From Candidatus Yanofskybacteria bacterium CG10_big_fil_rev_8_21_14_0_10_36_16 (GTDB lineage Bacteria > Patescibacteriota > Minisyncoccia > 2-02-FULL-40-12 > IGHO2-01-FULL-4-A): DNA of 64,000 nucleotides. This document shows, in pieces, positions 1,760 to 54,767 of this stretch. Both the position numbers and the translations under genes were made by a program. How positions within the stretch are numbered: position 1 is the stretch's first letter; every line of letters starts with the position of its first letter. Under the pieces are notes generated by a model. It was not told where the DNA came from. It saw only the letters and a program-made list of their open reading frames with translations, and searched no databases. Where the stretch lies: the NCBI GenBank assembly GCA_002794035.1, contig PCXQ01000006.1, forward strand, positions 24,533 to 88,532, given 5' to 3'.

Positions 1760-3502
1760 ATGGCAAAAGATGTAAGTAAAACAATTTTAATAATAGACGA
1801 CAACCCTTTCATGGTTGAGATTTTAGCGAACGAACTTAAAAACTCAGGATTCAACATAGAAAAAGCTGACAGTGGAGAAAAAGGTATTAAAAAAATAAAG
1901 GATTCAAAACCTTCATTGCTTATACTTGATATGCCCCTGCCTGACAAAGCCGATGGATTTAAAACATTAAAAGAGATCAAAGAAAATTCTAAAGACTTGC
2001 CAATATTAATTGTTTCCAACAACGATACTGTAGAATTTAGAAAAAAGGTATTGGAGGAAGGTGTAAACGGATACTTAATAAAAGCATTTGCAGGAAAAGA
2101 CGAGGTCATACAAGCAGTTAATGAAATCATGGCAGGTAAAGTTATCATGCCATCTATGGAAGAACAACCGGCATCAGAAAAAACAAAAGATGAATCAGGT
2201 GAATCGGAAGGTAAGGATGAAAATAAAATTAAATACAAAAGCCCCTTCAGCTCAACAAGTATTAACATTGGGGTTCCACCAAAAATAAAAGCAAAAATAG
2301 AAAAAGCTTTAGTTTCACCACGTGCCGAGTTATCAATAATAAACCTTGTAAATGACTTGATAGAATACGCTTACCATGCTCGTGCATCAGATATTCACCT
2401 TGAGCCATACAGTGATAGATTTATTGCAAGAATGAGAATTGATGGCATACTTCATGATGTATTTTCACTTCCCAAAAATACACAATCAGAAATTATAGCC
2501 AGAATAAAAGTTCTTGCCGGAATGAGAACCGACGAACACCAAACCGCCCAGGATGGCAGATTTAAAGCAACAATAAAAAGCCCGCCCAAACAATTTGATA
2601 TTCGTGTTTCAATAGTACCAACATATTACGGAGAAAACTCTGTTCTTAGGCTTTTGGCCGAACAATCATCCATAAAAACCATAGAGGACTTGGCATTCTC
2701 ACCAGAAGACAAAGAAAGAATAAAACGTGCAATTAAAAAACCTTACGGCATGATACTTGTCACAGGACCAACTGGTTCAGGTAAATCAACCACTCTCTAT
2801 ACTGTAATTAGAGAATTAAACAAACGTTCAGTATCAATAATCACCATCGAAGATCCAGTGGAATACTCAGTAGAAGGAATAGACCAAATACAGGTAAACA
2901 CCCGAACAGGATTAACTTTTGCAACAGGATTAAGATCAATACTAAGACAAGACCCCAATGTCATTATGGTAGGAGAAATACGAGACAAGGAAACAGCATC
3001 TATTGCGGTTAATGCGGCCCTAACAGGCCACAAACTTCTTTCGACACTTCATACGAATGACGCCGCAACGACACTGCCTCGATTGTTGGACATGGAGGTC
3101 GAACCTTTCTTAATTGCCTCAACTGTTAATGTTGTGATAGGTCAGCGTCTTGTTAGAATGTTGTGCACAAAATGCAAGAAAAAAAGAAAAATGACTGAGA
3201 CCGAGCTAAAGAACCTCACCAAGAGCATCCCCGAAAAAATATTAGGCAATCATAAAGAATTTTATGAAGTAGGCGGATGTGAAGTTTGTGGCGATACCGG
3301 ATACTTTGACAGAATGGGCATTTATGAAATTTTAGAAATGAATGATGAAATAAGAAGCGCAATATTAAGAAGAGCGGACTCAAGTGAAATAAACGAAATA
3401 GCAACAAAAAGCGGAATGAGTACTCTGCTTGAAGACGGATTTAAAAAAGTCGTTTCGGGACTGACAACGATTGAAGAATTATTAAGAGTTGTCAAAGAAT
3501 AA
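1760..3502 (+). CDS. Type IV pilus/T2SS assembly ATPase (PilB/GspE family) with an N-terminal REC receiver domain in place of the usual N1 domain
   Basis: N-terminus ILIIDDNPFMVEIL...SLLILDMPLPDKADGF...ILIVSNN...GYLIK is a complete REC domain with the acceptor Asp. C-terminal half has Walker A GPTGSGKSTT, the His box LLSTLHTNDAA, and a tetracysteine CTKC...CEVC motif typical of GspE/PilB. Confidence 0.85.
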   Translation: MAKDVSKTILIIDDNPFMVEILANELKNSGFNIEKADSGEKGIKKIKDSKPSLLILDMPLPDKADGFKTLKEIKENSKDLPILIVSNNDTVEFRKKVLEEGVNGYLIKAFAGKDEVIQAVNEIMAGKVIMPSMEEQPASEKTKDESGESEGKDENKIKYKSPFSSTSINIGVPPKIKAKIEKALVSPRAELSIINLVNDLIEYAYHARASDIHLEPYSDRFIARMRIDGILHDVFSLPKNTQSEIIARIKVLAGMRTDEHQTAQDGRFKATIKSPPKQFDIRVSIVPTYYGENSVLRLLAEQSSIKTIEDLAFSPEDKERIKRAIKKPYGMILVTGPTGSGKSTTLYTVIRELNKRSVSIITIEDPVEYSVEGIDQIQVNTRTGLTFATGLRSILRQDPNVIMVGEIRDKETASIAVNAALTGHKLLSTLHTNDAATTLPRLLDMEVEPFLIASTVNVVIGQRLVRMLCTKCKKKRKMTETELKNLTKSIPEKILGNHKEFYEVGGCEVCGDTGYFDRMGIYEILEMNDEIRSAILRRADSSEINEIATKSGMSTLLEDGFKKVVSGLTTIEELLRVVKE

Positions 3503-3580: not shown

Positions 3581-4600
3581 ATGCTTTTTGCTAAACACAT
3601 GTCAGTAATGATAGGTTCCGGCATGCAAGTCATACAAAGCTTAAACACACTTAAGGAACAGGTGGACTCTCGTTCATTTAAAATGATTTTGGATGATTTA
3701 ATAAATGACACAAAAAGCGGGCAATTTTTGTCCACCAGCTTAGAAAAATACAAAAATGTATTCAGTGAATTTTTTATAAACGTAATAAGGGTCGGAGAAG
3801 CAAGCGGAACACTGCCTGAAAACTTTAAATACCTTGCCGAAGAACTTAAAAAACGACAAGAACTAGCAAACAAAATAAAAGGTGCGATGGTTTACCCAGT
3901 AATAATATTGATAGCAACATTTGGCATAACAGGATTGCTGGTATTTTTCATATTTCCCAAGATACTCCCCGTGCTTAAAAGCATAGATGTAGAACTGCCT
4001 GTTTTGACAGTATATTTTATTTCAATATCTGAATTCACCTTCAAATATGGTTACTGGTTATTTGGCGGTGTGATTGCCCTAATTATAGGAATATGGGGCA
4101 TATTAAGAATCAGGCCTGTAAAATTTTTGTGGCATAAAATAATACTAAAAATACCCATAGTTAACAAAATGTCACAAGCTATAAACATGATAAAATTTTC
4201 AAGAACCCTGGGACTTCTTTTAAAAAGTGACGTAAAAATAGTGGAATCACTAAACATCACATCAAACACTATCAGTAATCTGGTTTATCAAAAAGCAATC
4301 AGAGAAACTGCTAACAGTGTTCGTATGGGTGATCAAATATCAAAATATTTAGCGACAAAGCCGCATCTTTTCCCAAAACTTTCAACCCAGATGATATCAG
4401 TCGGGGAAAACACAGGAAAATTAGATGAATCAGCTTTTTATCTGGCTGATTTCTATGAAAGCGAATTGAATGAAACCACCAAAACTCTTTCAAATGCAAT
4501 AGAGCCCATCCTTCTTCTGGCAATGGGACTTATCGTAGGATTTGTGGCACTAGCTATAATAACTCCTATATATAAAATAACACAAACATTGTCCCGTTAA
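3581..4600 (+). CDS. PilC/GspF-type inner-membrane platform protein (short, ~340 aa)
   Basis: GspF-family sequence pattern (MIGSGMQVIQSL..., GEASGTLPENFKYLAEEL) with hydrophobic segments. ATG at 3581 is preceded by AAGGAG; the longer TTG ORF from 3527 is less likely. Confidence 0.8.
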   Translation: MLFAKHMSVMIGSGMQVIQSLNTLKEQVDSRSFKMILDDLINDTKSGQFLSTSLEKYKNVFSEFFINVIRVGEASGTLPENFKYLAEELKKRQELANKIKGAMVYPVIILIATFGITGLLVFFIFPKILPVLKSIDVELPVLTVYFISISEFTFKYGYWLFGGVIALIIGIWGILRIRPVKFLWHKIILKIPIVNKMSQAINMIKFSRTLGLLLKSDVKIVESLNITSNTISNLVYQKAIRETANSVRMGDQISKYLATKPHLFPKLSTQMISVGENTGKLDESAFYLADFYESELNETTKTLSNAIEPILLLAMGLIVGFVALAIITPIYKITQTLSR

Positions 4601-4727
4601 TGATAAAAATTAACAAAAATACCAGTTTTACCAAAAATACCAATGAGTATTTTGTTTTTTCTCATAAAAATAAGGGATTCACCCTGCTCTTGTTAAATGG
4701 TTTATTAACTAAATTTTTAAATTAGTC

Positions 4728-7421
4728 GTGAAATTTAAAATAGCAAAAATATTTTCTTATGATAATTTTCCCTTTTCAAGGGCGGGGTTCACAATCTTGG
4801 AAACTCTTATTGCTGCTGCACTATTTGTTATCATTGGCGGAGGTATATATTTAGCCTACTCAAATATACTTGAAATAATCACTAGGGGACGGCTTGATGC
4901 TGAAGCCGCTTTTATTTTGGAAAAAGAAATAGAAATAGTAAGGAACATGTCTTATGAAAATATTGGAACCACAACAGGAGCACCATTTGGCAAATTAAAA
5001 AGTGAAAAAACTGTAATAGCAGGTAATATACCTTTTGTTTTAAGAACTACTGTCAGAAACATAGACCATATTTTTGACGGCAAATTAAAAGGCAAGAATA
5101 ATATAGCCAATCTAGATGTAGGTGCTCAAGTTGGAGAAGGAGGGTTAAGAATGGAAAACCAATCTAAAATAATAGGGGATGTGTTTTCAAACGGCGACAT
5201 AATTGGAACCGGTAATTCTAATATTACAGGGAGTGCATGGGCTGCAGGATCTAGCAAAATTGATACAGTCAATGTGGCTAATGATGTTCATGCAAATACT
5301 ATACTTAACAGCTTTGTGGGAAGAGATGCTTATTACAAAAACATTTCCAATACAACTGTAGTTGGTAATTTGTTTTCTAATGTCCCGGATATTGAACCCC
5401 AAGAGCTTCCAATATCACCCCAACAACTGGCTGAATGGAAAACACTCGCTGCTGAAGGAGGCACTATCCCGACCCAAACCATAAGCGGATCCAATATTGT
5501 TCCTCTTGGACCAATTAAGATAAACGGAAATCTTACCATAAGAAATTCCGGACGCTTAATAATAACAGGGGTAATCTGGGTCACAGGAGATATTCTTATG
5601 CAAAATGATGCGGTAATTGAGATCGATCCGTCATTTGGAATGTTAAGCGGTCTGATAATCACAGACGGCAGTGTAATGATAAGAAATGAATCTGCCATAT
5701 GCGGGTCTGAGGGTTATAACACTTCAACCCAGACATGTAACCCGCCTGACTCAAGCTTTGTTTTCATAGTTTCAACAAAAGAAACCCTTGAAGATCCGGC
5801 TATAACAATAAATAACGCATCTGACTTAAGAACTCTTGTACATGCCAACAACGGAACAATAAATTTAAAAAATGCTATCCAACTAGTTAATGCTACGGGT
5901 TATTCAATTTTATTAGAAAACACCGCGTCAGTTATATATGACGAGGATTTGGATGATGTAGAATTTGGTTTTGGATCATTGGCATCAGTCCAAGAAGATC
6001 TGGCGCCAGGGGACTACAAACTGGTGGAAATTGAAATAAGCTGTCCTGAATGCACACTACCATTCACACCCAAAAAAGTTACCGCCACCGTAGCTCCACA
6101 GGGCCTTGAAACAGTAAGTAGAAATGGATCATTGTTTATTAATGCAATTGATGCATCGGGTGACTCCACAGCAAATGCTACTGTGCATGTTGTTAATAAT
6201 TCTGCCAATCCTCCAATTGACATCACTGATGTAACCGGCTCTGATGGCAAACTCCAGATCATTGATGTAGCCACAGGATCTTTTACATATGAAATTATTG
6301 TTTCTAAAGCAGGATATTCCACCGAACAAACATATCTGCCAGGGGAACCATCGAACCCCAATCCTGTTAAACCTCATGCAACGGTAGCAGAACAAGACGT
6401 AACTGAAATTACTTTCGTCATAGACAGAACTAGCACCATGAACCTAACCACAAGCGATTACATATGTTCTCCTGTGGCTGACATTAATTTCCTACAGGAA
6501 GGAAGCAAGCTCATAGGCCAAAGCCCAGATGTATTAAAATATTCTGAGAACCTTTCAACAGACACGAACGGAAATTACACAAACAACTCACTGGAATGGG
6601 ATACATACAATTTATCTCTAACTGATTCCGGATTTGACCTGGCTGGAACTGATATTCTTATGCCTTTGGTTATTAACCCAAACACCAACAGAAATATCAC
6701 CTGGACAGTAAAGCCCAAATTTTCTAATTCACTTCTCGCTGTAGCAAGAGACACAAACGGAAATTTTGTAAACGATGCCGAGGTTACAGTATCAGGCCCA
6801 GAAACCAAATCTGCTTTTACTGGTCTGGCATCCATATCTTATACTGACTGGTCGGGGGGCAATTATGACTCTCAAAGCGGAGGAATCGCAACAACGCCTG
6901 CGGGACAGCTAACCTTGGTTGATTTAGGAGGAAACAAATATGCTTCAAACAGTGAGGAGTGGTTAATTTCCAACACTATTGATTTTGGAACATCAACAAT
7001 ATTTTATGGAAAAATTGATTGGGACCCCAAAAACCAGCCAGCTCAAACTGGAGCAAATAGCTTAAAATTCCAAATAGCAGCAAACAACGATAACAACACC
7101 TGGAATTTTGTAGGACCTGATGGTTCCTCAAACACTTATTACACGACCGCAAAAACCGATATTTACAGTCAGCATGATGGGAATAGATATCTAAGATATA
7201 AGGCATATCTACAAACAGTAGACCAAGGGTTCACCCCATTATTAGATAAGATAATCATAGAGTTTAACTCAAGCTGTGTTCCTGAAGGGCAAGCCCTTCT
7301 AAACAATTTACCGAATGGATCATACAACATAACAATAGATCACCCGGGTTATAAAACATACAATGACAACATAAATATAAACAGCGAGTGGCAAGAATAT
7401 AGAGCCATTTTGGTTCCATAA
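4728..7421 (+). CDS. Giant (897 aa) pilin-like protein: class III signal peptide, N-terminal pilin helix, large beta-rich adhesin-like body
   Basis: GTG start. Leader MKFKIAKIFSYDNFPFSRAG|FTILETLIAAALFVII has G at -1, F at +1 and E at +5 (prepilin peptidase site). Body contains beta-helix-like G/N/S-rich repeats and carboxypeptidase-regulatory-like segments (GSLFINAIDASGDSTANATVHVVN...KAGYSTEQTY; ITIDHPGYKTYN). Confidence 0.7.
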   Translation: MKFKIAKIFSYDNFPFSRAGFTILETLIAAALFVIIGGGIYLAYSNILEIITRGRLDAEAAFILEKEIEIVRNMSYENIGTTTGAPFGKLKSEKTVIAGNIPFVLRTTVRNIDHIFDGKLKGKNNIANLDVGAQVGEGGLRMENQSKIIGDVFSNGDIIGTGNSNITGSAWAAGSSKIDTVNVANDVHANTILNSFVGRDAYYKNISNTTVVGNLFSNVPDIEPQELPISPQQLAEWKTLAAEGGTIPTQTISGSNIVPLGPIKINGNLTIRNSGRLIITGVIWVTGDILMQNDAVIEIDPSFGMLSGLIITDGSVMIRNESAICGSEGYNTSTQTCNPPDSSFVFIVSTKETLEDPAITINNASDLRTLVHANNGTINLKNAIQLVNATGYSILLENTASVIYDEDLDDVEFGFGSLASVQEDLAPGDYKLVEIEISCPECTLPFTPKKVTATVAPQGLETVSRNGSLFINAIDASGDSTANATVHVVNNSANPPIDITDVTGSDGKLQIIDVATGSFTYEIIVSKAGYSTEQTYLPGEPSNPNPVKPHATVAEQDVTEITFVIDRTSTMNLTTSDYICSPVADINFLQEGSKLIGQSPDVLKYSENLSTDTNGNYTNNSLEWDTYNLSLTDSGFDLAGTDILMPLVINPNTNRNITWTVKPKFSNSLLAVARDTNGNFVNDAEVTVSGPETKSAFTGLASISYTDWSGGNYDSQSGGIATTPAGQLTLVDLGGNKYASNSEEWLISNTIDFGTSTIFYGKIDWDPKNQPAQTGANSLKFQIAANNDNNTWNFVGPDGSSNTYYTTAKTDIYSQHDGNRYLRYKAYLQTVDQGFTPLLDKIIIEFNSSCVPEGQALLNNLPNGSYNITIDHPGYKTYNDNININSEWQEYRAILVP

Positions 7422-7432
7422 TAAACAAAACC

Positions 7433-7567
7433 ATGAATCTTCATAAAGTTTTAAAAAAATTACTTAGCAATATATCTCCCTCTTCAAGGGCGGGGTTTAC
7501 CCCGCTCTTGAAGATGGATGCGCCTTTTTATCTAATATTTATCAGTAATCACCCTGTTAGCTCATGA
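7433..7567 (+). pseudogene. Truncated duplicate of a pilin 5-prime end (44-codon ORF MNLHKVLKKLLSNISPSSRAGFTPLLK...); its TGA stop overlaps the ATG of the next pilin gene (ATGA)
   Basis: Nucleotides 7433-7500 nearly repeat 7564-7632. It encodes the same leader as the downstream pilin, then diverges. An embedded hairpin tcttcaagggcgggg-ttta-ccccgctcttgaaga is present. Confidence 0.45.
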
Positions 7568-8199
7568 ATCTTCTTAAAGTTTTAAAAAAAATACTTAGCA
7601 ATATATCTCCCTCTTCAAGGGCGGGGTTTACATTAATAGAAATAGTAATCGGATTGGCCATAATGTCTATTATAGTTATTTTAATCGGGTCTTTTGGGCT
7701 TGATATTTTAAGCTCTCAAACATCATTTAGTAGAACACTTGAAATACAAAGCGAAATAAATCAAACATTCAAAGAAATTATACCCGAAATTCGCTCAATG
7801 GAAGAATCAGAAAATGGAGCTTACCCAATTATTTCGGCATCATCGGATTCATTTGAATTTTATAGTGATGTGGATAGCAACGGAACAGTAGACAAAGTAA
7901 GATATTTTGTTGATGGAAGTGAGATGAAAAGAGGAACAACAAAACCCTCAGGCAACCCGCCTGTTTATGATCCGTCTGATGAAAAAATTAAAAGATTAAT
8001 TTCTGATTTAACTTTAACATCAGCGGGCATGTTTAAATATTACGATAAAAATTTCACGGGATCCGAAAACTCATTGGCAGTTCCCGTAAGCATACCGGCA
8101 ATAAGATTAATCAGAATTGAAGCAATAGTTGACCCCAAAATACCGGGCTCATCAAATTTTGTTTCATCAATGCAGGCAACGCCCCGTAATTTACGCTAA
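7564..8199 (+). CDS. Minor pilin / pseudopilin (prepilin-type N-terminus)
   Basis: Leader MNLLKVLKKILSNISPSSRAG|FTLIEIVIGLAIMSIIVIL with F at +1 and E at +5; 211 aa. Confidence 0.7.
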   Translation: MNLLKVLKKILSNISPSSRAGFTLIEIVIGLAIMSIIVILIGSFGLDILSSQTSFSRTLEIQSEINQTFKEIIPEIRSMEESENGAYPIISASSDSFEFYSDVDSNGTVDKVRYFVDGSEMKRGTTKPSGNPPVYDPSDEKIKRLISDLTLTSAGMFKYYDKNFTGSENSLAVPVSIPAIRLIRIEAIVDPKIPGSSNFVSSMQATPRNLR

Positions 8200-9803: not shown

Positions 9804-10274
9804 ATGAGTAAATTATTTAAGACGAAGAAATCACAGGCAGGGTTCACTCTTATTGAATTATTGGTTGTAATAGGTATTATTGCCATTTTGGCAGCGGTAG
9901 TTATTATCGCCATAAACCCAGCCCGTCAGTTCGCACAAGCCAGAAATACCCAGAGGTGGTCAAATGTTAACGCCATCTTAAATGCTATCGGCCAAAACAT
10001 GGCTGATAACCGTGGTGTATTTAACTGTGGTGTTGCATTGCCAGCATCAGCATCGGTTATGTCTAACACAGGATACAATATATACACCTGTATAGTTCCT
10101 ACTTATATATCAACCTTACCAGTGGATCCTTCAGTTGGAGTTAACAATTCTCCAACAGACTACAATACTGGCTACACTGTAGCAAGAGATGCTTCAACAG
10201 GTAGAATTACTGTTAGTGCTCCTGAAGGATTAAACGAAACCGCAGTTCCAGAAAACATTGGCGTAACTAGGTAG
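9804..10274 (+). CDS. pilA: Type IV major pilin (PilA-like)
   Basis: MSKLFKTKKSQAG|FTLIELLVVIGIIAILAAVVIIAI is the classic type IVa prepilin N-terminus. 156 aa. A strong terminator follows directly. Confidence 0.85.
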   Translation: MSKLFKTKKSQAGFTLIELLVVIGIIAILAAVVIIAINPARQFAQARNTQRWSNVNAILNAIGQNMADNRGVFNCGVALPASASVMSNTGYNIYTCIVPTYISTLPVDPSVGVNNSPTDYNTGYTVARDASTGRITVSAPEGLNETAVPENIGVTR

Positions 10275-16644: not shown

Positions 16645-16672
16645 AAGACCTCGCCTTGGCGGGGTCTTTTTT
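16645..16672 (+). terminator. Rho-independent terminator
   Basis: agacctcgcc-ttgg-cggggtcttttttt. Confidence 0.6.
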
Positions 16673-16674
16673 AT

Positions 16675-16700
16675 CCCCACACTCATGCATGAGTGTGGGG
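16675..16700. repeat. Palindromic element CCCCACACTCATG|CATGAGTGTGGGG (member of a CCCCAC...GTGGGG hairpin family)
   Basis: Perfect 26-bp palindrome. Related elements at 22372-22387 and 24344-24396. Confidence 0.6.
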
Positions 16701-16846
16701 ATTTATTTATGTTGGAATTAGCTTTATTTTATGTTAATTTATAAACAACATGTCCCATTAACAATACACGAGGTGATTAACCTATAACAATTATCAAATT
16801 GTGATTGAATTAATTCAGTTACAATAATTATTTGTTATAAATTAAT

Positions 16847-20531: not shown

Positions 20532-20608
<77 letters not shown>

Positions 20609-20696
20609 TTTTAAGCGTAAAAATTGCGTCGAAATGAGCACATTTCAACGTACTTAAAAAATACCCATTTGGGTATTTTTTGTTTCAACTAATTAT

Positions 20697-20778
20697 GCGG
20701 TAGGATTTGAACCGCGGGTCGCAGGCGAAGCCGTAGATGCCGAGTACTCTCGGCGTCAAATCCTACCCCCGCAACCAT
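20697..20778. repeat. Inverted plus direct partial copies of the tRNA-Met 3-prime end (about 20 nt each) flanking a small hairpin-rich spacer
   Basis: 20757-20778 gtcaaatcctacccccgcaacca matches the tRNA 3-prime end including CCA. 20700-20718 gcggtaggatttgaacc is the reverse complement of the T-arm region. Confidence 0.45.
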
Positions 20779-21063
20779 CCTACGCCAAAACCGCCTAAAA
20801 GGCGGTTTTGGCTTCGGAATGGTTCTGCGAGAATAGCATTCCGAAAGTTTACTGAAGGATACCCCACAATTGAGCGAGGGCGACCTAAGGAAGCCCCGCG
20901 GGGCGAAAACGTACTGAGGTCAATAGACCGAATGTGCAACAAACGAACGGATGTGGAGGGGCAAATATTGATCCCGCCCTTGAATCTCAAGAGCGGGATT
21001 GACAGAATAGTATATTTTTGCTATTCTGTTTTTAGTTATTTAAGAATAAGGAGATTGGCAACG

Positions 21064-21642
21064 ATGAGCAGAGAAACGCGGCAAAAATCTAGGTTTGAGC
21101 TTATCGAAAGCAAAAAAACTTTTCTTGTAGGACATTATGTTTATTCTAACGGTCTTGATTCACCGGACATTGTTTCCTTAAGTTCAGGCAGAATTATACT
21201 TAACTTGGCAGAACAAGAGAACCTTGTTGCAGATGAAGAGAAGCAAGAAATATTAGCCCAGCTTGAAAATTCTGGGCTCCCAGAAAACGATCCCGCAAGG
21301 TTTGAACTTTGCGATTGTCCAAATACTATACCCCCTGGATATTTCTATACTTCTAAAGGAAACGTGTCATGTGTTATATTTTCCCTAAGTTTGGGCAGGC
21401 AAGTCCTTAAAATGGGACAAGAAATTCCAATTTTTTTGAATGAGGATGCTGAGGTAATGCTAACTCAGCTAGAAGCATCAGGTCTTCCAGAAAACGATCC
21501 CAGCCCAGAAGAAATCCGGAATGCAAATAAAAAAGCCCAAGAAGTTGAATTTGAAAAAATGTTGTTGAAAGATATGGGCATTCCCAAGAATGAAATCGAA
21601 GCTTTTCTGTCAGGAGGTCTCCCTGACACAGAAGAAAACTAA
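21064..21642 (+). CDS. Hypothetical protein with an internal repeat (L.QLE.SGLPENDP twice)
   Basis: ATG with RBS AAGGAG. The longer ORF from 20737 overlaps the tRNA-like fragment and a GC-rich structured region and is rejected. Confidence 0.5.
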   Translation: MSRETRQKSRFELIESKKTFLVGHYVYSNGLDSPDIVSLSSGRIILNLAEQENLVADEEKQEILAQLENSGLPENDPARFELCDCPNTIPPGYFYTSKGNVSCVIFSLSLGRQVLKMGQEIPIFLNEDAEVMLTQLEASGLPENDPSPEEIRNANKKAQEVEFEKMLLKDMGIPKNEIEAFLSGGLPDTEEN

Positions 21643-36621: not shown

Positions 36622-37284
36622 ATGTTAATTGTCAAATACCAATTCATCGTGTCGATTTTAAATAGTATAAAAAACCTTTTCGTTATAAGCCCAGACAGAA
36701 AGGGCCCCAAAGGTTTTACGTTGGTCGAGTTATTGGTTGTTATAGCCATCATTGGTATTTTGGCAACATTGTTATTGCTTCAATTGGCTGTTGCCAGAGG
36801 TAAGGCTAGAGACGTTAAAAGAATTGCCGATGTTAACCAAGTTAGAACCGCTCTTGAATTGTGGTTCGACGACAACGCAGCCCAATATCCAGCAACAATG
36901 GACTTGTATAGCGACATTGTTCCTAAATACATAGGACAATTACCACAAGATCCTCTTGCTGCTGGTGGTTGCAACACAGATGCAGGTGGCAATCCTAGGT
37001 ATGATGGAACTGCAGTTGGTACTGTTAACTGTTACGGTTATGCTTACCACCCCGATGGTGTTGCTTCAGATCCTATAAGATTCCAGGTATGGTCACAGCT
37101 TGAGCAATGGGCCCCTGCATTAGGTTCTGATGCTGACATTGACTCAACAGGTGCAGGTGTTAATGGTAACCCTTGGCCAGCTGCTGGAGCAGGAGCAACA
37201 GTAGAGGGTGGTTTGGATGATGTTACTGCCAACTGTGACGACGCCACCCCTGGAGATTGCATATACGACCAAGGAATTCTGTAA
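36622..37284 (+). CDS. Type IV pilin (start uncertain; likely an internal GTG about 36649)
   Basis: ...PDRKGPKG|FTLVELLVVIAIIGILATLLLLQLAVARGKARD; Gly/Ala-rich C-terminal region. Confidence 0.7.
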   Translation: MLIVKYQFIVSILNSIKNLFVISPDRKGPKGFTLVELLVVIAIIGILATLLLLQLAVARGKARDVKRIADVNQVRTALELWFDDNAAQYPATMDLYSDIVPKYIGQLPQDPLAAGGCNTDAGGNPRYDGTAVGTVNCYGYAYHPDGVASDPIRFQVWSQLEQWAPALGSDADIDSTGAGVNGNPWPAAGAGATVEGGLDDVTANCDDATPGDCIYDQGIL

Positions 37285-37300
37285 AATACTCTTAGTTAGT

Positions 37301-38128
37301 GTGATACAAAACAGTATTATCTTATTCATAATCGGTACAGTAATAGGAAGCTTCCTAAATGTTCTCATTTATAGAATACCGATAGGCAAAGATTTCATTT
37401 CGGGCAGGTCATCCTGCCCGAAATGTTATAAAGTGATACCGTGGTACGGTCTTTTTCCGGTTTTTAGTTATGTCTTTCAACGAGGAAAATGCTTGTTTTG
37501 CAAAGAAAAAATAAGCATTCAATATCCTGTCATTGAAACTATTTCAGGGCTGATTTTTGTTGGAACATCAATGTTTCTATACAGCCCTTTCTTATCAATA
37601 CCCGATTTAACTTATTGGCTTTTTTATATTGCAATAATTGAAATAACATTATTACTATTTGTTATAGACTTAAAACACTTCATACTCCCTGACTCACTGG
37701 TATTATCTCTTCTTGTTGCTTTCGGAGCTTATTACTTAACAACGCAAATTCTGGGAATATCTCCGGACTATGTCCAATCCTCTCTAACTATCCAAAACAG
37801 ACTCTTAGGAAGTCTAGTAATAGGCGGCGCTTTATTTCTGCTATGGTTTTTATCCAAGGGCAGGGCTCTGGGGTTTGGTGATGTAAAGTTAATGTCTGTG
37901 CTGGGTATAATTTTTGGCTTAAAAGGTGGTATAATAATATTTTACATGGCAATGTTTATCGGCTTAATTGTTGGCTTGTTTCTAATTTTTTTCAAACAGG
38001 CAGACCTAAAGACAAAAGTGCCATTCGGAACATTTATAGGATTGTCTGTCCTAACATACATATTTTTCTATAATCAAATTATATCCTATGTTAATTTTTT
38101 AATACTAAGAGCGTTCACAACAGTATAG
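37301..38128 (+). CDS. pilD: Prepilin peptidase (A24 family) PilD
   Basis: GTG at 37301 in frame. Zinc-binding pairs CPKC...CLFC; catalytic Asp motifs IDLKHFILPD and GFGDVKLMSVLG; polytopic. Confidence 0.8.
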   Translation: MIQNSIILFIIGTVIGSFLNVLIYRIPIGKDFISGRSSCPKCYKVIPWYGLFPVFSYVFQRGKCLFCKEKISIQYPVIETISGLIFVGTSMFLYSPFLSIPDLTYWLFYIAIIEITLLLFVIDLKHFILPDSLVLSLLVAFGAYYLTTQILGISPDYVQSSLTIQNRLLGSLVIGGALFLLWFLSKGRALGFGDVKLMSVLGIIFGLKGGIIIFYMAMFIGLIVGLFLIFFKQADLKTKVPFGTFIGLSVLTYIFFYNQIISYVNFLILRAFTTV

Positions 38129-38862: not shown

Positions 38863-39477
38863 ATGTTAGGCAAATTATCAAAAATAAAACAACCTGCCTT
38901 ATCTTTTATTTCCAGTAGGAAATATTTCGGGAATTCTAATTCGGGTTTTAGTTTGATTGAAGTATTGCTTGTTACTACTATTTTATCCATTTTATCAACG
39001 GTTTTAATTTTGACCTTTAGAAGTGATACATCTAATCAAGTATCGAGGATAAGGGCTGCGAAAGTAATAGCAACTGACATTAGAAGAATCCAATCATTGG
39101 CTCTTTCTACAACCTCTTATGATGGCGAAACAACATGCGGCTATGGCATGCTAAAACAAAATAGCAATACTTATATTTTATATGCCGGACTATCTGGTGG
39201 TATAACATGTCAGTCCAAACCAAAAAATTATCAAGCTGGTATAGACAAAATAATTGAGGTTAAACAAATAATTAACTCAAATCTTAAATTTCAAAACAAT
39301 TTTAAAGACATATTTTTTAAACCACCTGACCCAATAGTATACTTCCAAAACACGCACAACATCAACGCCCAGCCCGAGGAAATAAAAATAATAAAAAAGA
39401 GTGAAAACACTTGCGCTCAATCACCTTGCACAATTGTTAAAGTTTATGTAAGTGGAAAAGTAGAAATAGTACCTTAA
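38863..39477 (+). CDS. Minor pilin / pseudopilin
   Basis: ...FGNSNSG|FSLIEVLLVTTILSILSTVLILTF. Confidence 0.6.
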   Translation: MLGKLSKIKQPALSFISSRKYFGNSNSGFSLIEVLLVTTILSILSTVLILTFRSDTSNQVSRIRAAKVIATDIRRIQSLALSTTSYDGETTCGYGMLKQNSNTYILYAGLSGGITCQSKPKNYQAGIDKIIEVKQIINSNLKFQNNFKDIFFKPPDPIVYFQNTHNINAQPEEIKIIKKSENTCAQSPCTIVKVYVSGKVEIVP

Positions 39478-39591
39478 TGCTTTATCTTCATAAAAAAAGG
39501 CTTAATTCATACAATCTGAAACCACTGGAAGATAGTGGTGGTTTTACCCCACTCTTGAACAGCTTGTTTCTACTATTCGTTTAATTAAAAT

Positions 39592-40143
39592 ATGAAATTT
39601 AAATTAATAAAGACATTGTTTAACAATGATTTTCCTTATTCAAGGGCGGGGTTTACTCTGGTTGAAGTTGCAATATCAACCGTAATTTTGGGTATTTTTA
39701 TGTCTGCACTTCTGTTTATTTTATCTTTAAGCATATCCAGTGCCACTACTGTAAAAAATAATTTTGTTGCAGCATTTTTGGCCCAAGAAGGTGTAGAACT
39801 AATGAACAATCTGAGACACGAAGACTGGATTCAAGGAAGAGAATTCGGGTCTTTTGGAAGTATTCTAGGTGCCGTAAGTGACGGTGAATACCGTATTCAA
39901 TGGGACTCACTTGAACTCATGTCTCTAAACGGAAATCCACAATTACTAATTGATGATTCGACTGGATTGTATGGATACTCTGATGGAGGAATAGTTGGTG
40001 GAAATTCTGGTTTTTATAGAAAAGTAATAGTTGAAACTGTTGTTCCAGATATAGAAAAAAGGGTTACAGTAAGAATAGAATGGTCTGATGATGGAAATGC
40101 AAAACAAATAAACACGGAGTGGCATGCATTTAATTGGAAGTAA
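39592..40143 (+). CDS. Minor pilin (SRAG|FT leader class)
   Basis: MKFKLIKTLFNNDFPYSRAG|FTLVEVAISTVILGIFMSALLFIL. Confidence 0.65.
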   Translation: MKFKLIKTLFNNDFPYSRAGFTLVEVAISTVILGIFMSALLFILSLSISSATTVKNNFVAAFLAQEGVELMNNLRHEDWIQGREFGSFGSILGAVSDGEYRIQWDSLELMSLNGNPQLLIDDSTGLYGYSDGGIVGGNSGFYRKVIVETVVPDIEKRVTVRIEWSDDGNAKQINTEWHAFNWK

Positions 40144-40243
40144 ACAATGACTAATTTTTGTTAATCAATTTTTAAAAAACTAATGCAATTAAAACCAACA
40201 AAACAATTATTTAATAGTACTTTTTCACTCTCCTCAAGAGCAA

Positions 40244-40364
40244 GGTTTACCCCACTCTTGAACAGCTCGTTTCTACTATTCGTTTAATTAAAATATGAAA
40301 TTTAAATTAATAAAGACATTGTTTAACAATGATTTTCCTTATTCAAGGGCGGGGTTTACCGTAT
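40244..40364 (+). repeat. ~120-bp near-identical duplicated block (upstream region plus first 23 codons) shared by the two tandem minor pilin genes; the other copy is 39541-39661
   Basis: From tttaccccactcttgaacagct through caagggcggggtttac the two copies differ at a single position; downstream mature-protein coding diverges completely. Confidence 0.75.
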
Positions 40365-51099: not shown

Positions 51100-51846
51100 A
51101 TGATTATTGATTCACACTGCCATCCGCAGTTCCCACAATACAACAAAGATCGCGACGAGGTCATAAAACGTGCTTTAGATAATAAAGTAGAGATGATTTG
51201 TGTCGGTACTGATTTGGAAATGTCCAAAAAGGCTATTGAGCTTTCGGAAAAACACAAAGGAATATGGGCATCTGTAGGTGTTCACCCAACAGACGTAGAT
51301 GGAGGTATAAATGTTGAACCATTTGAAGAATTGTTGAGAAATAAAAAAGTTGTTGCACTTGGAGAAATAGGCCTAGATTATTACCATATTAAAGATGAAG
51401 CACTAAGAGAACACCAAAGGATAACTCTTATGCAATTCCTAGACATGAATGAAAAACATGGATTACCCCTAATAATACATTGCCGAGAAGCATATGAAGA
51501 CATGCTTAAAATTGTTGATTCTAGATTTAGGGGAGTAATACATTCTTGGACTGCCAACTGGGAAACAGCAAAGAAATTCGTTGATTTGGGTTTTTATATT
51601 GGCTTTAATGGTATCATCACCTTCACAGATCAATATAATGATACTGTTATAAATACCCCTCTTGAAAAAATCCTGATTGAAACCGATGCACCGTTTCTAG
51701 CACCAGTACCAAATAGAGGAAAAAGGAATGAGCCCTTGTGGGTTAAGCATGTAGCTGAAAAAATATCTGAACTTAAAAAGATAAGCATTGAAGAAGTCGG
51801 AAAACAAACAAAAGAAAATACAAAAAAATTGTTTAGAATAAAATGA
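51100..51846 (+). CDS. tatD: TatD-family metal-dependent hydrolase
   Basis: MIIDSHCHPQF...; GEIGLDYY; conserved His/Asp positions. Confidence 0.85.
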   Translation: MIIDSHCHPQFPQYNKDRDEVIKRALDNKVEMICVGTDLEMSKKAIELSEKHKGIWASVGVHPTDVDGGINVEPFEELLRNKKVVALGEIGLDYYHIKDEALREHQRITLMQFLDMNEKHGLPLIIHCREAYEDMLKIVDSRFRGVIHSWTANWETAKKFVDLGFYIGFNGIITFTDQYNDTVINTPLEKILIETDAPFLAPVPNRGKRNEPLWVKHVAEKISELKKISIEEVGKQTKENTKKLFRIK

Positions 51847-54767
51847 AATACAATCCTTCCAAAATAGAATCAAAATGGCAACGCAAATGGTCTAAAGACA
51901 AACTTTATATTGCGCGTGACACAAAAAAAGATAAAGAGAATTATTATCTTTTAACAGAATTCCCTTATCCTTCTGGCAACTTACACATAGGACACTGGTA
52001 TGCCTTTTCTGTGCCAGATATTTTTGGACGTTATGTGAGAATGAGAGGCAAAAACGTAATGTACCCCATAGGATTTGATTCATTTGGATTACCAGCCGAA
52101 AACGCCGCTATTAAAAGAGACCTTCAACCTGAAGATTGGACAAATCAAAATATTAAATACATGACTGGACAGCTTGAATCAATGGGGGCAAGTTTTGATT
52201 GGTCGCGTAAAGTAATAACATCTCACCCCGATTATTACAAATGGACTCAGTGGTTGTTTATACAATTTTATAAAAATGGGCTTGTGCGCAGAGATAACAC
52301 ATTAGTTAACTGGTGCCCAAGTTGTAAAACAGTTCTTGCAAATGAACAAGTTGTTGAGTCTAAGAAAAAAGAAGGAGTTGTAAATGTTTGTGAAAGATGT
52401 GGTACAGAAGTTCAACAAAGAGAAATGATCCAATGGATGCTTAAAACCACAAAATATGCAAAAGAATTAACAGACAGTCTAGAAAATGTTGACTGGCCAG
52501 AAGCTACGAAATTGGCTCAAAAAAATTGGATTGGCAAATCAGAAGGAACGGAAATAGAATTCAAAATAAAACACGCCTCAGTTGCTAAATCCAAGGAAAA
52601 CAAACAAATATTTAAGATAAAAGTCTTTACAACAAGACCAGATACTTTGTTTGGGGCAACTTATTTAGTATTGTCACCGGATCATAAATTAATCCAAAAC
52701 AACAATTTAGAGATACTAAACAAGGAAGAGGTTAATAAATATATTAAAAAATCAAAACAAAAAACAGAGCAACAAATAAAGGAAAGCAGAACCAAAACAG
52801 GAGTAGAACTAAAAGGAATCAAGGCGGTCAACCCGGCAAACAATGAAGAGATCCCGGTTTGGATTGCAGATTATGTAGTAAGTCACTACGGAACAGGAGC
52901 CATTATGGCAGTACCTGCCCACGATGAACGTGATTTTGAATTTGCAGTAAAACAAGGACTGCCCATAAGGGAAGTTGTTGTTCCTAATATAATCGATAAG
53001 CGTAATCCGCCAAAAGAGGGTAAAAAATCTAAAGAAAGAAAAAATGTACACGCCATAGTAAAGGACCCTAATACAGGACAATATTTGGCTTTGAAATGGA
53101 CAAAATTTGACTGGATAACATTCCCGATGGGCGGGATAGAGGAAGGCGAAGATGTTGTGACTGCAGCAAAACGAGAAGTAAAAGAAGAAACGGGTTTTTG
53201 CAATTTAAAATTAATTAAAGTTCTTGAAGGTCAAGCAAGGGCTGAGTATTTTGCTGCCCACAAAGACGAAAATAGAGTTTCATTTACTACAGCTGTTCTT
53301 TTCGAGTTAATTGACAACACACAATCTGACATTAGCAAAGAAGAAAAAGAAATGCATGAAGTTGTATGGATTGATAAAAACAAGTTAAACTATCAGGGCA
53401 TGACCCATGCAGAAATTGATCTTTGGGCACAAAAAATGCACTCTGAAAACCCGGCTTATACAAAGCATGGGATTTTAATAAACTCAGGAAAATTTAATGG
53501 CATGGATTCTGAAAAAGCCAAGTGGGAAATTACAAAATATGTAAAAGGCGAAAAGCAAACCAATTATAAACTACATGATTGGATAATTTCTCGTCAAAGA
53601 TATTGGGGAGTGCCAATACCAATGATTTATTGTCCAAACTGTGGATATAAGCCTGTAAAAGAAAAAGACCTACCCCTAAAACTGCCAAGATTGAATGATT
53701 TTAAACCAACAGATGATGGCAAATCACCCTTAGCCAAAGTTGCCAAATGGGTAAAAACAACATGCCCTCATTGTGGCAATGAAGCGGAAAGAGAAACAGA
53801 CACCATGGATACCTTTGTAGATTCTTCGTGGTATTTTTTGCGCTATTCTGATCCACAAAACAAAACAAAACCATTTGATGGTTCCAAACTTAAAAAATGG
53901 CTACCAGTTAATATGTACATTGGCGGAGCTGAACACAACACAATGCACCTATTGTATTCAAGGTTCTTTACCAAAGCAATGCACGAATTAAAATTAATTG
54001 ATTTTGATGAGCCTTTTGCCTCGAGACGAAACCATGGAATAATATTGGGGCCCGATAGCCAAAAAATGTCTAAATCAAGAGGAAATGTTATTGATCCCGA
54101 TGATTTAGTAAAACAGTTTGGAGCTGACACAGTAAGAATATATCTAGCCTTTATGGGGCCATATGACCAAGGAGGTCCTTGGAGCCCTGGGGCAATAAAT
54201 GGAGTTTATAGATTTTTAAACAGAGTATGGAACCTTTTCGAGACTAAACACAAAATCCAAAATATAAAATCCAAGACAAATTCCAAAACCCAAAGCAATA
54301 AAAAATTGGAACAATTACTGCATAAAACCATTAAAAAAGTAGGAGAAGATATCGAGGAAATGAGATTCAACACTGCTGTTAGTGAGTTAATGAAACTTCT
54401 TAATGAAATTGAGGCTTCAGAAAACCAATTAACAAATACGGATTATGAATTATTTGCCAAAATCATTGCTCCTTTTGCCCCTCATCTTGCAGATGAAATT
54501 TGGCATGAATTGTTAGGCAGAAAAAAATCTATCCATCTTGAAAAATGGCCAAAATATAATTCAAACCTTGTTAAAGAACATTCGGTTGAATTTATAATAC
54601 AGATCAATGGAAAACTTAGAGATACGGTAGAATTGCCCATAGATTCCCCAGAAGAAACAGTGAAACAATTTGCACTAAAAAGCGAAAATGTAAGGAAACA
54701 CATGGGAAACCAACAATACAAAAAAGCCATATTTGTGCCGAATAAACTAATAAATTTTGTATTGTAA
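51843..54767 (+). CDS. leuS: Leucine--tRNA ligase carrying an inserted NUDIX hydrolase domain (974 aa)
   Basis: HIGH: PYPSGNLHIGHW; KMSKS: KMSKSRGNVIDP; editing-domain motifs. Inserted block about nt 52990-53460 has a perfect Nudix box GGIEEGEDVVTAAKREVKEETGF. Confidence 0.9.
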   Translation: MKYNPSKIESKWQRKWSKDKLYIARDTKKDKENYYLLTEFPYPSGNLHIGHWYAFSVPDIFGRYVRMRGKNVMYPIGFDSFGLPAENAAIKRDLQPEDWTNQNIKYMTGQLESMGASFDWSRKVITSHPDYYKWTQWLFIQFYKNGLVRRDNTLVNWCPSCKTVLANEQVVESKKKEGVVNVCERCGTEVQQREMIQWMLKTTKYAKELTDSLENVDWPEATKLAQKNWIGKSEGTEIEFKIKHASVAKSKENKQIFKIKVFTTRPDTLFGATYLVLSPDHKLIQNNNLEILNKEEVNKYIKKSKQKTEQQIKESRTKTGVELKGIKAVNPANNEEIPVWIADYVVSHYGTGAIMAVPAHDERDFEFAVKQGLPIREVVVPNIIDKRNPPKEGKKSKERKNVHAIVKDPNTGQYLALKWTKFDWITFPMGGIEEGEDVVTAAKREVKEETGFCNLKLIKVLEGQARAEYFAAHKDENRVSFTTAVLFELIDNTQSDISKEEKEMHEVVWIDKNKLNYQGMTHAEIDLWAQKMHSENPAYTKHGILINSGKFNGMDSEKAKWEITKYVKGEKQTNYKLHDWIISRQRYWGVPIPMIYCPNCGYKPVKEKDLPLKLPRLNDFKPTDDGKSPLAKVAKWVKTTCPHCGNEAERETDTMDTFVDSSWYFLRYSDPQNKTKPFDGSKLKKWLPVNMYIGGAEHNTMHLLYSRFFTKAMHELKLIDFDEPFASRRNHGIILGPDSQKMSKSRGNVIDPDDLVKQFGADTVRIYLAFMGPYDQGGPWSPGAINGVYRFLNRVWNLFETKHKIQNIKSKTNSKTQSNKKLEQLLHKTIKKVGEDIEEMRFNTAVSELMKLLNEIEASENQLTNTDYELFAKIIAPFAPHLADEIWHELLGRKKSIHLEKWPKYNSNLVKEHSVEFIIQINGKLRDTVELPIDSPEETVKQFALKSENVRKHMGNQQYKKAIFVPNKLINFVL

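Follow-up and report, generated by a model that had tools for sequence, protein, structure and literature searches.

Four type IV pilin genes (starts at 4728, 7564, 39592 and 40295; loci A–D) in a 64,000-nt stretch of contig PCXQ01000006.1 of Candidatus Yanofskybacteria bacterium CG10_big_fil_rev_8_21_14_0_10_36_16, a member of the Patescibacteria (candidate phyla radiation), begin with oddly long leaders ending in SRAG/FT, and shortly upstream of each start lies a second version of the same leader peptide. How did these leaders come to be present twice? A first-pass annotation of the stretch (all 64,000 nt of it, hereafter the window) offered three options, namely scars of recombination or gene conversion among pilin 5' ends, a translationally coupled leader peptide, or an RNA element. 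[quoted passage not shown]

The affected proteins have the features of type IV prepilins (class III signal peptides), i.e. Gly at −1, Phe at +1, Glu at +5, a hydrophobic helix and an N-methylation motif, with the cleavage site being predicted; pilins A, B and C match PF07963 or TIGR02532 at the SRAG/FT site, and in pilin D the motif was seen by eye only. All four loci share one layout, in which an old ATG and a leader ending in GG-TTYA are followed by CCCCRCTCTTGAA, a 30–50 nt spacer and a new ATG or GTG, this new start opening a leader of 20–21 codons that ends in TTCAAGGGCGGGG, after which come a second TTYA, a C and the mature pilin. The blocks at these loci are 105–127 nt long, are bounded by 13-nt terminal inverted repeats (CCCCRCTCTTGAA ... 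TTCAAGGGCGGGG; consensus (C/T)CCCRCYCTTGAA) and are flanked by 4-nt direct repeats. In the five copies found in the window the 13-nt arms carry 0–3 mismatches and the flanking repeats are perfect throughout (TTCA once, TTTA three times and TTGA once), the next base always being C, and no copy (27–127 nt) has coding capacity for a transposase. The recurrence of TCAAGGGCGGGGTTYAC, to which the first-pass annotation had drawn attention, was borne out (exact at 4776, 7484, 7615, 39640 and 40343; nine matches with up to three mismatches against 0.11 expected), as was that of the upstream segment TTYACCCCRCTCTTGAA (7496, 39543, 40246 and, with three mismatches, 4678; ten matches against 0.64 expected), and each of the four pilin cleavage sites is preceded, 100–130 nt upstream, by a near reverse complement of TCAAGGGCGGGGTTYAC.

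The element at locus A (4682–4787, + strand, 106 nt) has its left repeat CCCTGCTCTTG at 4682–4692 and its right repeat TTCAAGGGCGGGG at 4775–4787, lies between TTCA copies at 4678–4681 and 4788–4791, and provides the start codon GTG 4728 and the leader MKFKIAKIFSYDNFPFSRAG. At locus B (7500–7626, + strand, 127 nt) the left repeat CCCCGCTCTTGAA occupies 7500–7512 and the right repeat 7614–7626, with TTTA flanks at 7496–7499 and 7627–7630 and a new start at ATG 7564; here a perfect 15-bp hairpin at 7481–7514 (folding −32.5 kcal/mol, z −7.0) is formed between an older right repeat and the left repeat of the new element. Locus C (39547–39651, + strand, 105 nt) has the left repeat CCCCACTCTTGAA at 39547–39559, the right repeat at 39639–39651, TTTA flanks at 39543–39546 and 39652–39655, and a new start at ATG 39592 with the leader MKFKLIKTLFNNDFPYSRAG, whilst at locus D (40250–40354, + strand, 105 nt) the TTTA flanks are at 40246–40249 and 40355–40358 and the new start is ATG 40295. 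The fifth copy (20972–20998, unstranded) is minimal, with 27 nt reading TCCCGCCCTTGAA tc TCAAGAGCGGGA between TTGA flanks at 20968–20971 and 20999–21002; it is not in a pilin gene and lies directly upstream of a terminator-like hairpin. The motif had initially been tied to pilin genes only, which this copy contradicts; of the opposite idea, a generic repeat unrelated to pilin genes, the first half holds and the second fails, the link to pilins being real and having a mechanistic reason. No further copies were found in ~10 kb of extra sequence flanking the window on the source contig, giving a density of five in ~75 kb. A peptide QGFTPLLDK encoded by GGGTTCACCCCATTATTAGA at 7228–7250, inside the 897-aa gene, resembles the left end of the element (TTCA + CCCC); a matching right arm was not found, and it may be a chance likeness or a decayed copy.

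That mechanistic reason lies in the cleavage-site codons. Gly-Phe-Thr is encoded by GGN-TTY-ACN, which contains the target TTYA followed by C, and pilin genes would be hit because they hold this target; they would tolerate the insertion because the terminal GGGG of the element and the duplicated target rebuild Gly(−1)/Phe(+1). After insertion the right end reads ...TCA AGG GCG GGG + TTY A + CN, or S-R-A-G/F-T, and GGG-TTY-ACN is rebuilt in the pilin frame regardless of element length. Gly(−1) is required by prepilin peptidases. The prepilin peptidase encoded in the window (peptidase A24; 37208–38128, + strand; PF06750 1.3e-29, PF01478 2.1e-12) would presumably cut after the rebuilt glycine and take off the entire element-encoded leader, so that the mature pilin would be unchanged and the insertion nearly neutral. 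When the element and one copy of the repeat were excised in silico, a continuous prepilin open reading frame (ORF) running from the old ATG to the same stop was obtained at all four loci (903, 211, 185 and 186 codons for A–D respectively).

Where the blocks end is also informative. Elements A, C and D have a homologous interior in common, start codon included, and elements C and D are identical at 104 of 105 positions, exactly between their flanking TTTA copies, whilst their 60-nt flanks (29–32/60 identical) are at background, and homology thus stops exactly at the block boundaries. These limits bear on gene conversion or cassette shuffling, in which homologous recombination among paralogous pilin 5' ends would have left the upstream fragments behind. 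Such a history would be in keeping with the presence of four of the five window copies in pilin genes, with the near-identical 5' blocks of the adjacent paralogues C and D, and with the tandem old and new leaders at B and D; however, conversion tracts are not expected to end so precisely at inverted repeats and 4-nt duplications, homologous recombination produces neither of these structures, and both the non-pilin copy and the TTNA-flanked copies of a sister family in unrelated contexts (described below) would be left unexplained. We regard it as very unlikely. The suggestion of recombination scars came closest of the three original options, and what survives of it is the scar; the cause would be transposition of an inverted-repeat element, the sharp C/D boundaries speaking against shuffling or gene conversion among pilin genes.

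Orthologous pilin genes in related genomes show the site both empty and filled. The pilin A orthologue L041 is an empty site (GGCTTTAC/CCTGGTTGAA; MIKKEKRPFSG/FTLVE), whilst its close orthologue L038 is filled, with 114 extra nt at the same point bounded by CCCCGTTAGAAGC and GCTTCTAACGGGG, and L039 and L040 carry a minimal 36-nt insertion at the L041-type site. The closest relatives of the window genes (L162 and L164) have short leaders, the sites filled in the window being empty there; in L162 a 685-nt gap with several GC-rich hairpins (5317–6000) separates PilC from the pilin A orthologue, whose site is among the empty ones. Among PilC-anchored loci taken from 37 metagenome-assembled genomes (MAGs), two (L009 and L024) have the same architecture with different, mutually pairing arms and the whole block in frame, reading MTKAKGFTPLNAESSGSYSRNLTG/FTLIE and MRSGFTPLETKNRKYLLTRQKRVRFLTG/FTLVE respectively. 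In L038 (3592–3701) a small hairpin, CCCGTTTAGAGAT..ATCTCTAACGGG with TTTAT/TTTAAT flanks, is nested in the loop of the larger element, all of it in frame. This nested insertion and the 104/105 identity of C and D at different sites would point, indirectly, to mobility.

Two ways of keeping the pilin translated can be distinguished. Where the added length is a multiple of three and contains no stops, the old start is still used (L009, L024, L038, L039, L063, L067, L144 and L153), the in-frame MAG pilin copies L009, L024, L038 and L039 being read through in this way, and such read-through leaders in MAGs and environmental contigs have the form GFTPLE...LTG/FT. The pilin copies in the window add 109–131 nt, in no case a multiple of three, and bring an in-frame ATG or GTG of their own, giving the new leader of 20–21 residues. 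Nearly all homologues of pilin C (n = 66) have short leaders, with P0049 and P0067 carrying 'GFTP...G/FT' leaders that match further arm families seen in the loci, and an exhaustive HMMER search of 1.84 billion representatives returned ordinary short-leader homologues and no other SRAG/FT leader (one further hit, P0042, was a eukaryote-like repeat protein judged to be spurious). Searching proteins by indexed words with the N-terminus of pilin C gave nothing, nor did a scan of viral contigs for the architecture.

A much larger set of related copies was found in metagenome contigs, where the pattern CCCCGTTAGAA-N(1–61)-TTCTAACGGGG matched at least 120 stretches and yielded a sister family of at least 133 copies; the counts that follow are for the matches listed. 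Their lengths are 26–81 nt, a range bounded by the search pattern. Perfect 4-nt flanking repeats were present in 84 of the 133 copies against ~0.5 expected (TTTA 42, TTCA 14, TTGA 10, CTTG 5, and others), and of the 76 oriented copies 69 have C or T as the base after the right repeat; a 5-nt duplication (TTTAC) was rejected, fitting only 46/76. The direction of the interior is fixed relative to the oriented target TTNA-Y in all 21 comparable pairs (L042–L160), which hints at an unusual transposition mechanism. Pilin cleavage sites hold only four of the 133 copies, the remainder being non-pilin and some lying within long open frames. Taken with the flanking repeats, these copies suggest that the element type is generic and probably mobile. 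The sum of length and 4 is a multiple of three in 77 of 133 copies (58%), in 17 of the 18 placements spanned by one open frame with at least 50 codons on each side, and in all four metagenome pilin copies, whose frames are open; judged from the sequences, this preservation of frame may be a signature of selection. Ordinary proteins with in-frame copies include a P-type ATPase and a 354-aa protein in L107. In L107 (42–1049 and 1694–2758), and in L042–L160 generally, in-frame copies leave the peptides FTPLE...LTGF or NPVRN...SNGV, depending on the frame. Overall, the element family appears widespread in Patescibacteria-type metagenome contigs.

What, then, became of the displaced leaders? Three of the upstream fragments had been described as having no start codon, but each sits in an open frame with an ATG (4600–4725, 39477–39584 and 40183–40287, with products of 41, 35 and 34 aa), in two cases as TAATG, so the old leaders are now short upstream ORFs. 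At locus A the relic (4600–4725, + strand, 41 codons) contains the displaced start with its leader (MIKINKNTSFTKNTNEYFVFSHKNKG/FT...). The stop codon of PilC and the relic ATG share bases (TAATG), as do the PilC stop and the pilin start in the orthologous loci L038 and L041, and the relic runs through the left repeat to a stop 2 nt before GTG 4728. The 44-codon ORF reported at locus B (7433–7567, + strand) was verified, its TGA overlapping the ATG of the 211-aa pilin at 7564 (ATGA, 0 nt gap); it is an older copy of the leader, 65/67 identical to the current one, and contains the older right repeat at 7483–7495. At locus C (39477–39584, + strand, 35 codons) the old start and leader (MLYLHKKRLNSYNLKPLEDSGG/FT...) begin with an ATG that shares bases with the stop codon of the pilin gene upstream (TAATG) and end with a stop 7 nt before ATG 39592, whilst the relic at locus D (40183–40287, + strand, 34 codons; MQLKPTKQLFNSTFSLSSRAR/FT) is a decayed copy of an element-type leader, 48/67 identical to the new one, and stops 7 nt before ATG 40295. 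In all four relic frames the pilin-like part ends in G-F-T, goes on P-L-L... and meets a stop 0–7 nt before the new start. Pilin 5' ends have apparently been hit more than once, part of this history being erased.

No Shine-Dalgarno sequence is present before any of the four new starts, and a scan of the region of loci C and D found no promoter-like site inside the elements, the total for the region not exceeding that of shuffled sequence. We propose that ribosomes arriving from the upstream gene would translate the relic ORF, melt the helix between the two repeats and re-initiate at the new start; the relic ORF crosses the left repeat, so its translation would open the helix that encloses the new start, and re-initiation after it would keep operon coupling. 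In this manner the relic ORFs would maintain the chain of stop-start coupling typical of this operon. The translationally coupled leader peptide proposed earlier is likely a consequence of the insertion, the relic ORF stopping 0–7 nt before the new start at every locus.

The same helix could instead be the selected feature, that is, a cis-regulatory RNA in which long-range pairing of the 5' untranslated region with the leader segment controls translation, RNase III processing or premature termination of the minor-pilin mRNAs. The pairing as first reported (11 Watson-Crick pairs, one G-U and one mismatch) is correct, and minimum-free-energy folding predicts the helix at three of the four loci (z of −1.95 for A, −3.38 for B and −3.12 for D), the arm mismatches being mostly G-U on the sense strand (two at A and one at each of the other loci). 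Codons as GC-rich as AGG GCG GGG are unusual for a 36% GC genome, and between genomes the arms differ but still pair. Pairing arms are, however, expected of any inverted-repeat element, and the same arms and 4-nt duplications occur beyond pilin genes, at 20972–20998 and in most of the 133 listed sister copies. There is no compensatory change within the window, where C and D have an A-C mismatch, locus C does not form the helix (z −0.29), no Rfam match was found (a gathering-threshold scan of the window gave three tRNAs only), orthologous pilin genes in relatives lack the element, and the helix does not account for the direct repeats beside the arms. Regulation by a selected structure appears unlikely to us; what can be kept of the RNA element is the pairing, as that of two terminal inverted repeats, and not a selected structure, for which the window offers no compensatory change.

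Inverted repeats that bracket exactly the start codon and leader of four pilin genes also bring to mind a phase-variation switch, in which a site-specific recombinase would invert the ~100-nt start and leader segment and turn each pilin gene on or off, and inversion switches classically act on pilus genes (fim and piv systems). Against this, two other, independent assemblies of this genome are base-identical to the window over loci A and B and show no orientation variant, many family members have loops of a few nt and so cannot invert, and flanking duplications are not typical of such switches. No recombinase domain was detected in the ~55 long window ORFs scanned; with this and the single orientation at loci A and B, the features of invertons or shufflons are lacking, and we consider a switch extremely improbable. 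Neither assembly has a polymorphic empty site at these two loci.

Insertion of a MITE-like element is the reading that we favour, and the lack of transposase domains in the same ~55 ORFs fits a non-autonomous element, but several observations weigh against this interpretation. At loci B and D an older element-type leader lies upstream with no recognisable older left repeat, and so the history needs an extra step of deletion or decay. Across ~1 Mb of loci no autonomous parent insertion sequence sharing the ends of the element was detected, a search for repeat pairs 250–3500 nt apart yielding only ordinary genes bracketed by separate copies. Among the sequences examined, the window arm variant CCCCGCTCTTGAA was seen only in the window's own genome, and pilin genes hold four of its five copies, compared with 4/133 of the listed copies in the sister family; spread from pilin to pilin by recombination, or selection for such copies, may be the cause of this bias. 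Classical cut-and-paste (DDE-type) MITEs do not usually keep to one orientation relative to an asymmetric target, and orientation-specific insertion combined with a 4-nt duplication that varies is hard to place in any insertion-sequence family that can be named with confidence.

How does the element compare with known systems? Bacterial MITEs (Correia/NEMIS, ERIC, RUP and Nezha) have been reviewed (PMC3184786, PMC10969869). The present elements are like them in their small size, terminal inverted repeats, flanking target duplication, absence of a transposase gene, dispersed copies with empty and filled orthologous sites, stable stem-loop when transcribed and frequent fusion to host reading frames. 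They differ in a repeat and a 4-nt TTNA(Y) target that match no identifiable family, in having no parent insertion sequence that we could find, in inserting in a specific orientation relative to the target, and in their hosts, which, where known, are Patescibacteria. Literature searches on MITEs in the candidate phyla radiation, Patescibacteria or Parcubacteria brought up no relevant work.

Rickettsia palindromic elements (RPEs; Ogata et al. 2000), as portrayed in PMC10969869, are palindromic repeats that land in frame within protein-coding genes, which tolerate them; the sister family likewise keeps the reading frame in 17/18 spanning frames among the listed copies, in enzymes including the P-type ATPase. 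In that portrayal the RPE peptide stays in the mature protein, whereas at pilin sites the peptide encoded by the present elements is in the leader that is presumably cut off. The present elements are shorter, and no sequence relationship to RPEs was found. NCBIfam holds RPE domain models, and a search of the insertion-carrying proteins against NCBIfam gave no hit to any of these. Donation of an initiation codon to a downstream gene is a likeness to Neisseria REP2 repeats, which supply an initiation codon and expression signals (PMC3184786). REP2 repeats, however, are without terminal inverted repeats and lie upstream of genes, whilst the present element is inside a coding region and has neither a promoter-like site (in the scan of loci C and D) nor a Shine-Dalgarno sequence at its four new starts. 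PATE (derived from IS200/IS605) and REP/REPIN-RAYT elements are likewise hairpin-forming, orientation-specific and adjoin motifs of the TTNAY type, which the targets of IS608 (TTAC) and ISDra2 (TTGAT) resemble. Those elements lack a target duplication, in contrast to the variable 4-nt flank on both sides here (TTTA, TTCA, TTGA, CTTG), and no Y1 transposase domain was detected in the scanned window ORFs. Insertion of the IS200/IS605 type next to TTAC was ruled out on the same grounds, the flanking 4-mer being variable and duplicated.

A wider view, which we put forward tentatively and hold to be rather doubtful, is that the window subfamily is a mobile pilin 'leader cassette' homing to Gly-Phe-Thr codons, and that the CCCCG... 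elements as a whole form a large undescribed RPE-like superfamily of Patescibacteria. In such a cassette the terminal GGGG would rebuild the cleavage site, the start codon and class III leader would be portable and the relic ORF would preserve operon coupling, whilst prepilin peptidase would erase the element product from the mature protein, a self-removal at the protein level that would be intein-like in its logic. A superfamily of this kind would have littered many proteins with in-frame FTPLE...LTGF or NPVRN...SNGV peptides. A further palindromic element in the window, 28 nt long (16674–16701) with a different arm (TCCCCACACTCAT) and TTTA/TTTA flanks, is placed right after an intrinsic-terminator-like hairpin at ~16648–16672; it hints that (C/T)CCC... 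elements with TTNA duplications make up a superfamily.

The window itself has a GC content of 36%, with nearly every gene on the + strand, and the pilin loci belong to two type IV pilus clusters. The first runs from a histidine kinase and response regulator through PilB, PilC, pilin A (897 aa), pilin B (211 aa) and a 475-aa protein to a pilin at 9804; the second consists of PilB, a PilT-like ATPase, PilC, a pilin at 36622, the prepilin peptidase, a pilin at 38863 and pilins C and D. The PilB-type assembly ATPase of the first cluster (1760–3502) has an N-terminal response-regulator receiver domain and is preceded by the histidine kinase and a stand-alone receiver, and the same receiver-PilB fusion is present in the relative L162. 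In L164 a gene for a protein of the bAvd / 23S-rRNA-IVP family (1888–2256), a type that is an accessory of diversity-generating retroelements, is located between PilC and a large pilin-like gene. Elsewhere in the window, a GC-rich stretch of ~360 nt after tRNA-Met (20610–20970) runs up to the 27-nt element and a strong terminator hairpin, and none of its possible ORF starts is convincing; it had no Rfam match, a permissive scan of 20600–21100 giving noise, and may be an undescribed or divergent structured RNA. The leucyl-tRNA synthetase (51843–54767) has a NUDIX hydrolase domain at residues 399–516, next to or within the region of the editing domain.

MITEs, RPEs and repeats bearing start codons are known (PMC3184786, PMC10969869), whilst the searchable literature appears to contain no description of the present family, of its abundance in Patescibacteria-type contigs or of its 'safe landing' in a leader that is discarded. 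The insertions explain the odd long leaders of the 'SRAG/FT' and 'GFTPLE...LTG/FT' types and the small ORFs that precede Patescibacteria pilin genes, and element-derived leaders and relic ORFs can mislead both the calling of start codons and the alignment of protein families. The prepilin cleavage site would be a spot within a coding region where a mobile element can land at almost no cost, because the leader is discarded and the end of the element rebuilds the essential glycine. The abundance of such elements in metagenome contigs, often in frame within ordinary enzymes, is of relevance to the evolution of very small genomes, and insertions that rewire the translation of minor pilins could matter for pilus expression, given the central part that type IV pili are believed to play in DNA uptake by Patescibacteria and in their episymbiotic lifestyle.

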